Shown here: piece after piece, positions 2,557 through 34,360 of the stretch | Layout: each line of letters opens with the position of its first letter | How positions within the stretch are numbered: the stretch's first letter is position 1 | UHGV virus genome: UHGV-0165227 | Source: a virus | Strand: one strand, 5' to 3' | DNA: 34,611 bases | Notes under the pieces: generated by a model | Database searches by the model: none | Told to the model about the DNA's origin: nothing | What the model saw: the letters and a program-made list of their open reading frames with translations, nothing else | Position numbers and translations under genes: made by a program

Positions 2557-4676
2557 CTGTCACTAGCGAGCCATGTAATAATCCCCGTGCGGGCAATGGT
2601 TTTTGCTTCATCTGTTGATAAGGTTTTCTCCCATCTCTTAAATGCCCCAGATTGCATCAGTTTCCTTTCTATTACGCGTCTCACTTCTGCTCTGTCTACT
2701 GGTGCGTTTTGCAGGCGAAATAGCATTGATTTAAACTCAGGAGAAGACAGTAGAGCATCAGCAGCCTTTATCCTGCTTGTTTTCCCTGACATCAATGCTG
2801 ACGTTATCACCCCTGTTGCACCTACACCAGGAAGACCAGATAAGCTTGTAATACCTTCCGCCGCAGCAGCTTTTGAGGCTATTCCATAAATTTTTGCGAG
2901 ACTACCCTTTTCTTTCAGAAAGTTATTAACTTGCTGATCCACAAGGCTGCTAGCATACTGCTTACCAGTATTGAGTCTATTCATAGCCTTGGCTGCTTGA
3001 TAAATCGTATCAAGGCGCTTTGATGCATCTGTGCCAATAGCATCACGGAGAGCCTTCATATTGGCCCCATTGCGTGACATTCCGTTATACCATTTTACAA
3101 ATCCATCAACCCCTAATTGCTGGCCTGGTGATTTAGCATAGCTGGTAAATGCTTTATTCATTGAGGTGAGCGCAACTTCCTGCCGCATATCCTTTGGAAT
3201 TGACTTCATTAATTGCCTAAAGTCACCACCGTTTCCTTTTGCCATATTAACAACGGCACTTTCAACTTTTGGAATTGCTGATTGCTGAAGTTTTCTACCC
3301 AAAACGGTTACGGCATCATCTTCAATGGATTTTCGTGTTTTTACCAACTCCTTACCAAGCGTCCATAACTCCCCTGCGCCATATTTTTCTGCGACAGCCT
3401 GTTGGTCATCTGTTATAGCCGCATATAACTTTTTAAGAACACCTGTTTCTTCATCCTTGAATGGGCCAGAGCCTTTGCCAATAGCTTGCCCAACCTGCTT
3501 TCTAGCGAGATCTAAACGCCCATACGTTGGCAAGGTGTTTGGATCAAGTCGGTTCAATGTCCGCTTCATTATTGGAGATAATTCATCAATTCCACCTATA
3601 TCATCAGCAAAATCCTCTAAAAAATTCAATGTATTAGTTGCCTCAATCCGGTCTCTTACAGGAACCTTTTCGGCAATTTTGTTGTAGATGTTATCTGACT
3701 GATTTTGTAATGATGAAATGGTTTTATCAAAATTATCTGCAAGCCTGTCAGAAACCAGTTGCTTATCAAGGCTTCCCCCAAATGAAGTTATCATTTCATC
3801 AGCTTTTCTTCCTAATTCAGTAATAAAACGCTTATGCGCCTCACTAATCTCTGTTCCAGGGAGACTTGCCACTGCATTATCAAGAGCCCTGACAGCAGGA
3901 TTATTAGAGATCATGCCTGGAGTGGCATAATTTTCCAGTTCTAGCTCACGAATAGCATTTATCGCGTTAAAATCAGGATTAACTTCATCGGCGAAATCTT
4001 GAATAGCTCGTTGCCCGCCGATAAATTTATTGTCCATTGCGCCAGCAGCTTTCTTTAACGTTGCTTTAGATGATTTACTACCCATCCCTACGGATGAGCG
4101 ATAAATATCTCCGGCACTATTTTTAATTTTTCCTGCAATCTTCCCAAGCGCTGGACCAACAATCTCTGCTACAGGGCCAGCCACAGCGCCAATAGCAGCT
4201 CCAGAAGCAACATCGCTATTTGTTCCATTGGCTACAATAGCCCCTTCTCCAGCACCAAGCCCTGCGGCGGCAGCCAGCCTTGCCGCCCCTTTCGGAACCT
4301 GAGAAATAATCCCACCACCACTAACAAATGGCGCTGCTTGTCCAACAAACTCACCAACATCTTGTGCGGTTGATGGTTTTGCCGCTAACTTCTGCTGTAG
4401 AGACTGAATTGCGGCTTGCTCTTCTGGTGTCATATCCTGAAACAGGCCAACACCTTTACCAACATCCATCAATCCACTGAGAACGCCATACATAAAACGG
4501 TCGAAACCGTTAGCATTATTAACAACATTTTCCTGTCTGGAATTTTCCTCTGGCGAAACCAAAGGTGATTGCTGCTGTTCTGGTTGGGCATCAAGCACAA
4601 AACCATCAGGAAGCTGTGAGTTATCAGGCTGATTATCGAGAACAAAGCCTTCGGGTAAACCTACATCGGTTGCCAT
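2553..4676 (-). CDS. Ejection (injection) protein, P22 gp16-like
   Basis: Last gene of the ejection-protein trio by synteny (gp7, gp20, gp16); 707 aa, Gly/Ala-rich. Confidence 0.7.
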
Positions 4677-26801: not shown

Positions 26802-28154
<1,353 letters not shown>

Positions 28155-28203
28155 TCCCCACCTCAATCTCGATAACCAAAAACAAACTATTTTTCATTTA
28201 AAA

Positions 28204-28271
28204 ACAATGGAGTTTGTTTTTCACGCCCCTTTTTACAATATTTCTTGTTTACAACATACAATCTTTCTTGT
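28204..28271. promoter_or_regulatory. 434-type left operators (three ACAA-N6-TTGT sites) with pL
   Basis: Sites at 28204-28217, 28235-28248, 28258-28271 upstream of nutL and N. Confidence 0.75.
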
Positions 28272-28315
28272 AATTTTAAGCCATCAGCAGGACGCACTGA
28301 CCACCATGAAGGTGA

Positions 28316-28346
28316 GGCTCTTAAAAATTAAGCCCTGAAGAAGGGC
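28316..28346 (+). promoter_or_regulatory. nutL (boxA-like GGCTCTTA + boxB GCCCTGAAGAAGGGC)
   Basis: boxB perfect hairpin at 28332-28346; context ATGAAGGTGA-GCTCTTAAAAATTAAGCCCTGAAGAAGGGCAGC as in lambda nutL. Confidence 0.75.
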
Positions 28347-28614
28347 AGCATTCAAAGCAGAAGGCTTTGGGGTGTGGTGAAGCCAGCTAGTCACTGGCAA
28401 GTGCTTACCTACTGTTGAGCGGTGAAGAGCTCCCAACGCTAGCAATAGCGTGGACGAGATGGGGAGCCGCGGGCGATAAGGCCGCCATAACGCGCACGTT
28501 GTCGCATGGAAAAATCGCTGGGGTGCCGGTTATACCCCTCCGAATGAGACTCAACAAGCTGGAGCTAGACTACCAGCCACCACACCACCAAAGCTAACTG
28601 ACAGGAGAATCCAG

Positions 28615-28941
28615 ATGGATGCACAAGCACGCCGCCGCGAACGTCGCGCAGAGAAACAGGCTCAATGGAAAGCAGCAAATCCCCTGTTGGTTGGGGTAAG
28701 CGCAAAACCAGTTAACCGCCCTATTCTCTCGCTGAATCGCAAACCGAAATCACGAGTAGAAAGCGCACTGAATCCGATAGACCTTACGGTGCTGGCTGAA
28801 TACCACGAACAGATTGAAAGCAACCTGCAACGTATTGAGCGCAAGAATCAGCGCACATGGTACAGCAAGCCACGCAGTGAAATGGGTGTGACTTGTGTTG
28901 GTCGCCAGAAAATGAAATTAGGCAGCAAACCACTTATTTGA
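28615..28941 (+). CDS. N: Antiterminator N
   Basis: Arg-rich N-terminus MDAQARRRERRAEKQAQWKAANPLL, lambda N-like throughout. Confidence 0.9.
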   Translation: MDAQARRRERRAEKQAQWKAANPLLVGVSAKPVNRPILSLNRKPKSRVESALNPIDLTVLAEYHEQIESNLQRIERKNQRTWYSKPRSEMGVTCVGRQKMKLGSKPLI

Positions 28942-28949
28942 GGTGATAT

Positions 28950-29201
28950 ATGGAATTTCATGAAAGTGCGATTTGTGATTTTCGCGCTAACGCAAATTCA
29001 GTAAAACCACAGCCAATTGCAGTTCTTTTTAAAACAATGGGGGCGTGGGCTGTTTTATGCTTCGCCGCTGACGACACTGACGCAAGAATGGCAATAGGCC
29101 AAGAGATGGAGATGGACCCGACAAACGATGAATTCATAATTTATGGCGCTCCATCTAATTACTTACTTGATACCTGCAACATTTACAACAAGGCTGCCTG
29201 A
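28950..29201 (+). CDS. Hypothetical protein downstream of N
   Basis: GAGGTGA RBS before ATG 28950; 83 aa, no recognised family. Confidence 0.45.
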   Translation: MEFHESAICDFRANANSVKPQPIAVLFKTMGAWAVLCFAADDTDARMAIGQEMEMDPTNDEFIIYGAPSNYLLDTCNIYNKAA

Positions 29202-29260
29202 TGGTGGCCTTTATTTTTTGGCCGTAAATAATTTCATGCTTATTACAATCAAGGGGATAT

Positions 29261-29710
29261 ATGGAAGAACAAGCAAACAAGATTCTCGTAGAACTACTGC
29301 AAAAAGCCAGCAATGGAATAGACATGGCTGTTTCATTCAGCCAGGCGCAGATTCCTGATGTTGTTCATCAGTTGCTGCTATGGAATATGGTTGACAGTCT
29401 GATTAAAACATTAATAGCCATTCTAACAATCCCACTGGTTTTCTGGTTTATGAAGAAGCAGTGCCGAAGAGTTGAGACAGGTAAAATCGGTGATGAAGGA
29501 TATTCATGGGAGAAGGGAAATCCCAAATACAGGCCGACAATGGTTTGGGATAGCAAAGGTGATATTAATCTTCTTATCATGCCATTAGTTGTAGTTTTGG
29601 CTCTGTGGGGGATTTTTATTATTAGTGCAGTAACCAATATGACATGGTTAAAAATTTTGCTGGCTCCAAAGCTTTACCTTATCGAATATGCAGCATCATT
29701 GGTTAAGTAA
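29261..29710 (+). CDS. Two-pass membrane protein (149 aa), function unknown
   Basis: AAGGGGA RBS; two hydrophobic helices; followed directly by intrinsic terminator. Confidence 0.5.
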   Translation: MEEQANKILVELLQKASNGIDMAVSFSQAQIPDVVHQLLLWNMVDSLIKTLIAILTIPLVFWFMKKQCRRVETGKIGDEGYSWEKGNPKYRPTMVWDSKGDINLLIMPLVVVLALWGIFIISAVTNMTWLKILLAPKLYLIEYAASLVK

Positions 29711-29714
29711 TTTC

Positions 29715-29740
29715 AGGCCGCATAGTCGGCCTTTATTTTT
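29715..29740 (+). terminator. Intrinsic terminator
   Basis: AGGCCG / CGGCCT stem, 6-nt loop, TTATTTTT. Confidence 0.6.
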
Positions 29741-29859
29741 GGCATAAACAACAGAATAAACACTGCACTGTGTATTCATTCCAACGAGTGAATACACGGA
29801 GCAATGTCGCTCGTAACTAAACAGGAGACGACTTGTTCTGATTATTGGAAATCTTCTTT

Positions 29860-29885
29860 GCCCTCCAGTGTGAGGGCCTTTTTAT
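29860..29885 (+). terminator. Intrinsic terminator upstream of cIII
   Basis: GCCCTC / GAGGGC stem, 6-nt loop, CTTTTTAT. Confidence 0.5.
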
Positions 29886-29949
29886 ATGCATACCAATAAC
29901 GCTTCACTTGAGGCGTTTTCGTTATGCAATCAAACAGAAGGAGCATCCT

Positions 29950-30120
29950 ATGCAACAGTTCGCTATTGCAGGGGCGGCATCGGTTCGCCCTTTCAACCCG
30001 ATTTTATCGGTACAGCATTCACGAAAAAACATTTTAACCGGAGCAGACTTTAAACAACCAAGAATGAAAAGTTTGCTCGAAAAGCTTTGGGATATTTTGA
30101 AACAACAAGGCCGTCCATGA
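29950..30120 (+). CDS. cIII: CIII-like protein (FtsH inhibitor)
   Basis: AAGGAG RBS; MQQFAIAG...SLLEKLWDILKQQG resembles lambda CIII core; 56 aa. Confidence 0.6.
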   Translation: MQQFAIAGAASVRPFNPILSVQHSRKNILTGADFKQPRMKSLLEKLWDILKQQGRP

Positions 30121-30275
30121 GTTTTACAGATAACTGGTCAGACGAAGAATTCATTCGTCAGATGAAAGATTTAATCGGTAACGAAGGAGATATTCATGTC
30201 ACTTGCAACCACAGTGAAGGAGAGCAAGTTACAGAGACGCATGTACACGCAGAAAGCTCTCTGGTATCGCCATAA
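30117..30275 (+). CDS. Small acidic hypothetical protein (Kil position)
   Basis: ATG overlaps cIII stop (ATGA); 52 aa. Confidence 0.3.
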   Translation: MSFTDNWSDEEFIRQMKDLIGNEGDIHVTCNHSEGEQVTETHVHAESSLVSP

Positions 30276-30374
30276 TGGTGACCGCGAAGGAATGCGGGTA
30301 TGCCTTAATTTGTCCCGAGTCGAAGTATTAAATCAGCGTTATTTCCTTGGGCCGTGTCCATTCTGAGGTGAATT

Positions 30375-31082
30375 ATGGATTTGAATAAATTCGATGAGCC
30401 ATTCAGCCCTGAAGATATCGAATGGCGAATACAGCAAAGCGGTAAAACACGCGATGGCAAGGTGTGGGCTATGGTGCTGGCTTATGTCACGAACCGGGCA
30501 ATCATGAAACGCCTTGACGATGTTTGTGGCAAAGCAGGATGGCGCAATGAATACCGCGATATTCCCAACAACGGCGGCGTTGAATGCGGCATATCAATCA
30601 AGATTGATTCCGAATGGGTAACCAAATGGGATGCTGCTGAAAACACGCAGGTAGAAGCCGTCAAAGGTGGTCGTTCCGGTGCAATGAAGCGCGCTGCTGT
30701 TCAGTGGGGAATCGGTCGGTATCTGTATAACCTTGAGGAAGGTTTCGCACAAACATCTCTCGATAAAAAGCAGGGATGGCACAGGGCAAAACTCAAGGAT
30801 GGAACAGGATTTTACTGGCTCCCTCCATCGCTGCCGGGATGGGCAATCCCAGCATCAGATAACAAACCATCACCAGAAAATACCAACCAGAAATCTCCAT
30901 CGGTTGACTGCGAGCAAATCCTGAAAGACTTCAGCGATTATGCGTCAACAGAAACTGACAAGAAAAAACTCATCGAGCGTTATCAGCGTGACTGGCAATT
31001 AATGGCTGGCAACGAGGAGGCGCAGGCTAAATGCGTTCAGGTAATGAACATCAGAGTTAACGAACTAAAACAGGCGGCATAA
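30375..31082 (+). CDS. Rad52-family single-strand annealing protein
   Basis: GGRSGAMKRAAVQWGIGRYLYNL and upstream GW...EY pattern resemble Rad52 N-terminal domain; GAGGTGA RBS; adjacent to ssb. Confidence 0.55.
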   Translation: MDLNKFDEPFSPEDIEWRIQQSGKTRDGKVWAMVLAYVTNRAIMKRLDDVCGKAGWRNEYRDIPNNGGVECGISIKIDSEWVTKWDAAENTQVEAVKGGRSGAMKRAAVQWGIGRYLYNLEEGFAQTSLDKKQGWHRAKLKDGTGFYWLPPSLPGWAIPASDNKPSPENTNQKSPSVDCEQILKDFSDYASTETDKKKLIERYQRDWQLMAGNEEAQAKCVQVMNIRVNELKQAA

Positions 31083-34252: not shown

Positions 34253-34360
34253 GACGTAACCAACATTCGAATTGAAGAACTGAAAGAACACCAAGCCGCC
34301 TGATGGCGGTTTTTTATTGCCTGATTTGCAGGTTCGATTCCCTATTCGGAGATAGCACTC

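Follow-up and report, generated by a model that had tools for sequence, protein, structure and literature searches.

Two Unrelated and Probably Independently Exchangeable Genes in the N-to-cIII Interval of a Lambdoid Early-Left Operon

Do two genes that stand side by side directly after the antiterminator gene N form one functional system, or are they separate cargoes of the same slot? This question is raised by positions 28,950 to 29,740 of the UHGV virus genome UHGV-0165227 (34,611 nucleotides; this whole stretch is called the window below), where two open reading frames (ORFs) encoding 83 and 149 residues, here named ORF83 and ORF149, follow N. The window is a lambdoid prophage whose early-left operon runs on the + strand; its sequence is 100% identical to E. 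coli DETEC-E601. The N-to-cIII interval is the first DNA that a lambdoid phage transcribes, and in lambda it encodes anti-restriction (ral) and exclusion (sieB) proteins. A preliminary description had read the two genes as a soluble-plus-membrane abortive-infection or exclusion module expressed early from pL and closed by its own terminator. Our analysis indicates that in this lambda-like pL operon the hypervariable stretch between N and cIII probably holds two modules of one gene each, which are unrelated and can be exchanged independently. What is new in the segment is how its genes are combined: each is catalogued but uncharacterised, and the slot is well known as hypervariable.

Anatomy, joints and inheritance of the interval

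The features of the interval are as follows.

28922-28955, + strand: joint J1, comprising the 3' end of N, the GAGGTGA ribosome-binding site (RBS) and ATGGAA; a conserved boundary ahead of differing cargo
28941-28955, + strand: RBS/start motif AGGKGATATATGGAA, 15 nt, copy 1, at ORF83
28950-29201, + strand: ORF83, 83 residues, phrog_2471; GAGGTGA lies 3 nt upstream of the ATG and overlaps the N stop codon
29190-29221, + strand: predicted terminator T1 (joint J2), a 9-bp stem followed by TATTTTTT, -14.6 kcal/mol
29252-29266, + strand: RBS/start motif copy 2 (AGGGGATATATGGAA) at the ORF149 start; direct repeat D4, 93% identical to 28941-28955
29261-29710, + strand: ORF149, 149 residues, a two-pass membrane protein, phrog_3054; RBS AAGGGGA
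29715-29742, + strand: predicted terminator T2 (joint J3), a 6-bp stem with 5 GC pairs followed by TTATTTTT, -9.7 kcal/mol
29743-29887, + strand: conserved spacer, equivalent to lambda 34087-33923 and to the Sf6 'bsq4 boundary sequence'

The coordinates of the two ORFs directly after N and their RBS motifs agree with the preliminary description, and the ORFs are real genes, with ratios of nonsynonymous to synonymous substitution rates (dN/dS) of 0.09-0.37 and end-to-end matches to PHROG families. The hairpin and T-tract reported after ORF149 are also present (29715-29742), but the stronger T1 had been overlooked between the ORFs, and the picture of one two-gene cassette closed by one terminator does not hold. 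The stop codon of ORF83 is located in the loop of T1. The interval thus comprises two successive units of RBS/start, cargo and terminator, and this anatomy is that of two units rather than of a single cassette. T1 and T2, both predicted terminators with a GC-rich hairpin and an immediate T-run, have the core GGCCTTTATTTTTGG in common. T1 is homologous to the hairpin that follows ral in lambda, and the same hairpin is annotated as a rho-independent terminator in the mEp234 record. A third hairpin with a T tail (29860-29877) lies at the end of the spacer and is homologous to the Sf6-annotated tL2A. Four + strand terminator-like sites fall within 29190-29917, while a scan of 4.5 kb returned 7 sites versus 4.4 +/- 2.2 in shuffled sequences, a count that is not significant by itself; the sites carry weight because they are conserved at mosaic joints, not because of their number.

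The recombination joints were located to the base by pairwise comparisons. As the preliminary description had proposed, the slot is the one used by sieB in lambda and P22, namely the accessory slot of the pL operon, filled in lambda by sieB, orf28 and ral. The lambda region N-sieB-orf28-ral-ea10-cIII (33.3-35.4 kb) has the same operon, pL start, nutL and N as the window, and its joints lie at 34381-34352 (J1, before orf28), 34103-34059 (T1, the hairpin after ral) and 34087-33923 (the spacer before ea10/cIII). Compared with lambda, ORF83 stands in place of sieB (on the - strand), orf28 and ral, and ORF149 is an added module inserted at the post-ral terminator, so that this terminator is now duplicated on both sides of ORF149. 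Lambda ea10 is missing from the window, where lambda ~33923 is joined to ~33522. The 31-34 nt of J1 also stand ahead of orf28/ral in lambda, Sf6, CE0007a and HK544, and ahead of an ORF149 variant in SPN9CC. In mEp234 and VT2-Sakai the order is N-ORF83-terminator-spacer, with the 521-bp ORF149 unit absent and the joint within the terminator core. HK544 reads N-(orf28)-ral-terminator-spacer, and in HK544 and lambda alike (sieB on the other strand)-orf28-ral occupies the stretch between the equivalents of the left joint (28922-28955) and the terminator (29185-29231). A lambda-like prophage in strain CE0007a has the order rexAB-N-sieB(-)-ral-ORF149-ea10-cIII, with an ORF149 98.7% identical to the one studied here. 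Sf6 has N-gp36-ral-gp34, and the end of ral, the terminator, the spacer and the start of gp34 are collinear, base by base, with the end of ORF83, the terminator, the spacer and the start of ORF149. Sf6 gp34, which aligns with ORF149 over its full length, follows ral in the slot that ORF149 has here, and the terminator and RBS ahead of it are the same. The lambdoid boundary sequences recorded in GenBank (bsq4 and bsq5 in Sf6 and CUS-3) resemble those found here in bordering non-homologous, terminator-bounded cargo of low GC content. Judged from these alignments, the short shared start motif AGGKGATATATGGAA and the terminator core GGCCTTTATTTTTGG are the joints at which lambdoid phages exchange cargo. 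ATGGAA is the common start of ORF83, ORF149 and orf28.

Inheritance was counted in 5426 complete E. coli genomes. Any part of 28600-29900 is matched in 2303 of them, and at least 80% of this region in one. ORF83 is present in 400 genomes, mostly in O157:H7 Stx phages and mostly alone after N, and ORF149 in 130 (at least 80% of its length; 238 with any match), usually after ral. The exact pair of ORF83 and ORF149 occurs in 5 genomes, and ORF83 followed by a 121-residue ORF149 variant in 18; the partner is absent in ~94% of ORF83 and ~90% of ORF149-family occurrences. A sample from IMG/VR, consisting of bona fide lambdoid loci bearing the start motif (J1) and so biased to motif carriers, has orf28 plus ral in the first slot at ~50 loci, ORF83 at 6 and both together at none. 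In the same sample an ORF149-family gene follows ral at 10 loci, ORF83 at 3, N at 2 (one with two N-like matches), and sieB and orf28 at one each. ORF83 and ORF149 are separately inherited: the comparison of this slot across related prophages, which the preliminary description had put forward as a check, finds the cargo swapped independently and not as a pair. The observed distribution is not expected of a two-component system. GenBank already lists the pair, as two hypothetical proteins, for HK633, for Gally and for a few E. coli genomes.

Both genes are predicted to be transcribed from pL, in agreement with the early expression proposed before. A promoter scan shows no promoter-like site at 28942-28949 or 29202-29260, and a candidate promoter for ORF149 in the 59-nt spacer was rejected, the best match being 4/6 + 4/6 without the invariant -10 T. 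Gally, a prophage of E. coli LF82, has both genes (ORF83 protein identical, ORF149 94% identical). In the LF82 transcriptome the repressor is the only Gally gene whose level exceeds the prophage background by a factor of 5 or more, and the authors of that study concluded that Gally is without morons (PMC9928086). The lack of a detected promoter, together with the silence of the two genes in the Gally lysogen, argues that both genes are lytic-cycle, pL-driven genes and not exclusion genes expressed from the prophage. Because no terminator is predicted from pL to T1, ORF83 should share with N the first transcript, which does not depend on N, and ORF149, lying beyond T1, would need N-mediated read-through. 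In the proposed course of events, polymerase from pL would transcribe nutL, N and ORF83 and then stop at T1, and N-modified polymerase would go on past T1, through ORF149, and past both T2 and the tL2A-like hairpin to reach cIII and the recombination genes. ORF83 would act in the cytoplasm at the earliest moment; ORF149 would enter the inner membrane shortly after ORF83 acts, and would then affect the envelope.

The two proteins and their families

The preliminary description had stated that neither protein resembles a named family, and the searches bear this out. ORF83 and ORF149 show no match in Pfam, NCBIfam or PADLOC at E<=1, and profile searches of PDB sequences return nothing below E=0.27 for either protein. 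A Pfam scan of 12 diverse ORF149 relatives gives scattered single-member noise only, and the sole Foldseek match of the ORF149 model in BFVD is an uncharacterised sequence relative from Pseudomonas phage Bjorn. The remote-homology and structure-prediction check proposed earlier was thus carried out and gave no informative match. We found nothing in the literature on the function of phrog_2471, phrog_3054 or Sf6 gene 34. Peptide strings of ORF83 and ORF149 do not occur in the supplementary files of an accessory-gene screen that included ral (PMC12373910), and the prophage transcriptomics paper of Owen et al. holds nothing on the N-to-cIII slot.

ORF83 is a small acidic protein (pI, the isoelectric point, 4.2; 12 D/E versus 5 K/R residues) with no transmembrane segment by Kyte-Doolittle analysis. 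It matches phrog_2471, a family annotated 'unknown function', over residues 1-83 (E=1.4e-61), and dN/dS values of 0.09-0.19 against homologues from other genera show purifying selection. ORF83 is an orphan: 5.8e9 proteins contain 19 clusters of it and 1.84e9 representatives contain 5; an exhaustive hidden Markov model search with the ORF83 profile over 1.84e9 representatives recovers its own close family only. It is carried by the main Stx2a phages of E. coli O157:H7, including VT2-Sakai, and by ~7% of complete E. coli genomes. Divergent homologues of 70-83% identity are found in Citrobacter, Klebsiella and Enterobacter prophages, where they directly follow an N-type antiterminator gene in all loci but one (L004, 3359-4252), which has TerB-like and DUF3927 genes ahead of the homologue instead of a recognisable N. 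The genes that follow these divergent homologues are unrelated, and none is an ORF149 homologue. In all, ORF83 is found after at least four different N sequence types. In a Citrobacter-type contig (L005, 3723-4595), ORF83 lies between two different N-like genes, with the Pfam domains N_peptide (upstream) and Phage_N_antitermin (downstream).

We compared ORF83 with Ral of lambda, P22 and Sf6. They alternate as cargo within one set of flanks; each is a small early protein ending in ...NKAA, and the stop codon of each falls in the loop of the same terminator. No locus examined has both: ORF83 is without ral at 9 loci and ral without ORF83 at 4. Ral usually has orf28 upstream, whereas ORF83 does not. 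ORF83 as a diverged Ral was rejected, since BLASTP gives no alignment at E<=100 and neither Pfam nor NCBIfam gives a match. The commonest ORF at the post-N motif is a 28-residue hyper-acidic peptide (MEEEFEEFEEHPQDVMEQYQDYPYDYDY), present at ~29 of the first 120 IMG/VR loci (L030, L032, L039 and others). In position and length it fits the annotated orf28 of lambda (34271-34357). The peptide is always found just upstream of ral, overlapping the ral start, and is without annotation in HK544 and Sf6.

Because ORF83 is small, acidic and cytoplasmic, is locked into the first position after N, and is mutually exclusive with ral, we tentatively suggest that it could be an immediate-early inhibitor that, as infection begins, binds and neutralises some function or defence of the host. 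As the positional alternative of ral, with a predicted N-independent transcript and a place in Stx2a phages, ORF83 is a defined and cheap candidate for anti-defence screening.

In ORF149, Kyte-Doolittle analysis shows two hydrophobic stretches, at residues ~43-64 (maximum 2.0) and ~105-126 (maximum 2.8); the AlphaFold2 (AF2) model makes each a helix, in agreement with the two transmembrane helices described earlier. A conserved N-terminal helix (F..QIPDV..QLL.W) and a conserved C-terminal amphipathic helix (W.KIW.APK.YL.EYA..L.K) flank them, and two membrane passes would place these helices on one side of the membrane. The protein matches phrog_3054, also annotated 'unknown function', over residues 1-149 (E=1.6e-62); 12/12 diverse relatives also fall in this family, and the dN/dS values of ORF149, 0.13-0.37 against homologues from other genera, again show purifying selection. 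The family comprises 465 clusters in a single-sequence search and 1604 in a profile search, with Sf6 gene 34 as its earliest named member. Its 173 phage records at E<=1e-5 contain no T4 record; it is carried by Escherichia, Salmonella, Vibrio, Pseudomonas and Klebsiella phages, both temperate and virulent.

Within the enteric variants this gene is itself a mosaic, and its central region is located as follows.

29385-29643, + strand: exchangeable ORF149 centre, with transmembrane segment TM1 at ~29387-29452, a loop, and TM2 at ~29573-29638

Compared with the Sf6, CUS-3 and SPN9CC variants, the nucleotide identity of ORF149 is 82-100% in the first 45 codons and 83-98% in the last 14, versus mostly 16-44% in the centre (columns 46-120) and 56-58% in columns 121-135. 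At least three unalignable central cassettes give proteins of 149, 140 and 121 residues (Sf6 L002, CUS-3 L029, SPN9CC L022 and Klebsiella F14 L021), with a lower gene-end identity of 69-86% in Klebsiella F14. Among the gp34-like relatives of Sf6, CUS-3, SPN9CC and HK633/Gally, it is the central 80-odd codons that are replaced by different unalignable cassettes, as compared in Sf6, CUS-3 and SPN9CC. The long-loop variants have 9 K/R in the loop, suggesting that it is cytoplasmic, whereas the 121-residue variants have an acidic 10-residue loop, suggesting the opposite. A family with conserved ends and an interchangeable membrane core is worth study in its own right.

The genomic contexts of ORF149 homologues are diverse. 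They are found among early or nucleotide-metabolism genes in N4-like phages of Vibrio and Salmonella, in phi92-like myoviruses, and in phages of Klebsiella and Pseudomonas. In Salmonella P22-like prophages the homologue follows sieB, which is on the opposite strand, and in a Vibrio myophage it lies on the opposite strand within the tail genes, together with a bidirectional terminator of its own. PhiR46_1 of E. coli has it between the Rz and terminase genes, and in Pantoea and Citrobacter prophages it comes directly after Rz/Rz1-type spanin genes, with overlapping start and stop codons. In the latter loci (L010-L013, Pantoea stewartii and Citrobacter prophages, 4001-4453) the start lies 4 nt before the stop of the Rz/Rz1-type genes (DUF2514, LysC). 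This overlap with the spanin stop suggests translational coupling to the lysis cassette. Two 146-kb records named 'Campylobacter phage A150/A110a' (H164/H165) have a gp34-like gene that scores identically to that of phi92-like E. coli phages, which suggests that the records are mislabelled or contaminant.

We also compared ORF149 with known exclusion proteins. ORF149, SieA and SieB are all small membrane-associated phage proteins, and SieB is found in the same neighbourhood. ORF149 as SieA or SieB was rejected, as profile comparison by hhalign gives 0.3% probability with each. Against SieB in particular (PF14163), there is no Pfam match at E<=1; a tblastn search for sieB over the whole window finds none. 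The identities that would have made the two genes familiar, Ral or a known SieB, are thus matched by neither protein. In P22, lambda, CE0007a and the Salmonella prophages, sieB runs on the opposite strand; by the P22 annotation it has its own promoter and is prophage-expressed. ORF149, unlike SieB, lies in the sense of pL with no promoter-like site upstream, and its Gally homologue is not among the lysogen-expressed genes. Moreover, ORF149 homologues are found alongside sieB and not in its stead.

T4 Imm is a small early inner-membrane protein of a virulent phage, and it blocks the entry of secondary-phage DNA. ORF149 would resemble it in small size, two transmembrane helices, early lytic expression and presence in virulent phages. 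ORF149, an inner-membrane protein, may act early on the envelope of the infected cell. By analogy, superinfection immunity of the T4 Imm kind is our leading, if doubtful, guess at what it does there, and ORF149 alone may have an exclusion role during lytic growth.

Competing explanations

That ORF83 and ORF149 make up a two-component abortive-infection or exclusion system expressed from pL appears very improbable. The two genes are adjacent and co-oriented, they join a soluble to a membrane protein in the sieB slot of lambda and P22, and at least 23 E. coli genomes, as well as HK633 and Gally, have either the pair or ORF83 beside a variant. However, T1 separates them, most copies of either gene lack the partner (~94% and ~90%), and their phylogenetic ranges and contexts are distinct. 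PADLOC gives no match to abortive-infection or defence components at E<=1 for either protein, co-inheritance as a single operon is not what the genomes show, and neither gene is expressed in the Gally lysogen. The module proposed in the preliminary description is not supported on these grounds, namely the rare co-occurrence, the intervening terminator, the unrelatedness to SieA and SieB, the carriage by virulent phages and the silence in Gally. The likelihood of a toxin-antitoxin pair, in which the acidic upstream protein would be the antitoxin and the downstream membrane protein the toxin, is close to nil: the likeness in gene order and sizes is superficial, T1 again lies between the genes, their distributions are independent, and neither a toxin-antitoxin family match (Pfam, NCBIfam, PADLOC) nor the obligate two-gene operon of type II systems is seen. 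In a highly mosaic slot, adjacency and a soluble-plus-membrane look are no proof of a system.

Other explanations take each gene by itself. ORF149 could be an accessory of the lysis cassette, antiholin-like or concerned with lysis timing, that was also captured into early operons; the spanin overlap in Pantoea and Citrobacter, the place between Rz and terminase in PhiR46_1, and a small protein with two transmembrane helices as in class II holins all favour this. It is unlikely, as the 12 diverse members give no holin or antiholin Pfam match at E<=1, and, although some relatives adjoin Rz/Rz1, most copies are far from lysis genes, either among early or DNA-metabolism genes or by themselves on the opposite strand, with the window copy before cIII in the early-left region. 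ORF149 as a prophage-expressed superinfection-exclusion moron of the SieA/SieB/HK97 gp15 type is improbable too. Both genes have moron traits in their own terminators (T1 and T2), their GC content (43% for ORF83 and 39% for ORF149 versus 47% for the whole window) and their presence or absence between identical flanks. In addition, ORF149 is a small inner-membrane protein in moron hot spots, stands alone on the opposite strand in the Vibrio phage, and has a centre that is exchanged as a whole while its flanks stay nearly identical, the pattern expected if it set specificity in an arms race. Classical morons of the HK97 gp15 type have their own promoter and are expressed in the lysogen, but the scan detects no promoter ahead of these genes and their homologues in the Gally lysogen are silent; the family is also found in virulent phi92-like and N4-like phages, is unrelated to SieA/SieB and co-occurs with sieB. 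For ORF83, the main alternative to an anti-host or anti-defence role is that it regulates the early programme of the phage itself, for example N, Lon/FtsH or the choice between lysis and lysogeny. Its strict linkage to N across several N types, its predicted co-transcription with N, and the other small modulators of host proteases and division in the pL operon (cIII, Kil) fit such a role. We nevertheless regard it as unlikely: the variety of N types (at least four) argues against a specific N partnership, the absence of ORF83 from most lambdoid phages makes it dispensable for the core programme, and its exact place is that of ral, an anti-restriction gene.

Several observations weigh against two independent modules with the functions suggested for them. 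Some ORF149-family variant follows ORF83 in at least 23 E. coli genomes and in 3/6 of the motif-biased IMG/VR ORF83 loci, which may reflect a loose functional affinity of both genes. The terminator and promoter activities are predictions; T1 contains two G-U pairs, and the energy of T2 is just 1.8 standard deviations below shuffles. The Gally data come from one strain, one condition and a 5-fold cut-off, and low-level lysogenic expression is possible. Homology and fold matches are uninformative for both proteins, whose functions we infer, and the AF2 models of ORF83 and ORF149 are of low confidence (predicted local distance difference test scores, pLDDT, of 62.6 and 64.5). The charge bias did not settle the membrane topology of ORF149, and the slot shared with ral is circumstantial for an anti-defence role of ORF83. 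Two independently exchanged modules remain the preferred reading of the interval. A further-reaching proposal, that ORF83 is a new immediate-early anti-defence or host-takeover protein replacing orf28 and ral, and that the gp34/ORF149 family is a widespread envelope-immunity protein whose swappable cassette sets specificity, is speculative and, taken as a whole, rather unlikely.

Surrounding operon and neighbouring genes

The genes and sites on either side of the interval are listed below.

27121-27753: cI-type repressor
27750-28154, + strand: 134-residue ORF placed as rexAB is in lambda; it follows directly on the cI-like repressor, whose stop it overlaps
28234-28283, + strand: pL/OL, read from sequence; -35 TTTACA at 28248-28253, -10 TAATTT at 28271-28276
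28317-28346, + strand: nutL, with boxA GCTCTTA and boxB GCCCTGAAGAAGGGC
28615-28941, + strand: antiterminator N of the lambda type; Pfam N36 E=3e-25, phrog_271
29950-30120, + strand: cIII, phrog_550 (E=1e-22), where conserved early-left genes start again

The left operator consists of two TACAA-N6-TTGT(A/T) dyads (28234-28249 and 28257-28272) that overlap the -35 and -10 of pL. The predicted pL transcript start is at ~28283, and homology to lambda begins at window 28282, which corresponds to lambda 35583, the pL start. The immunity-specific sequence stops exactly at this lambda-homologous transcript start. The consensus promoter scan gave no score to pL. From 28282 to 28376 the window is 98.9% identical to lambda 35583-35489, a stretch that includes the annotated Nutl site of lambda, and the N gene is 92.9% identical to lambda N in nucleotide sequence. 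A scan of 27000-31000 against Rfam finds zero RNA families. A further + strand hairpin with a T tail (29898-29917) lies just upstream of cIII, and Rad52/Erf recombinase and SSB genes are found in the window beyond cIII.

The ORF at 27750-28154 has an N-terminal signal-like sequence and a GC content of 42%, and belongs to phrog_2651, a family annotated 'unknown function'; Pfam, NCBIfam and PADLOC give no match. Since it would be co-transcribed with the repressor, this ORF is a better candidate than ORF83 or ORF149 for an exclusion or conversion gene expressed in the lysogen.

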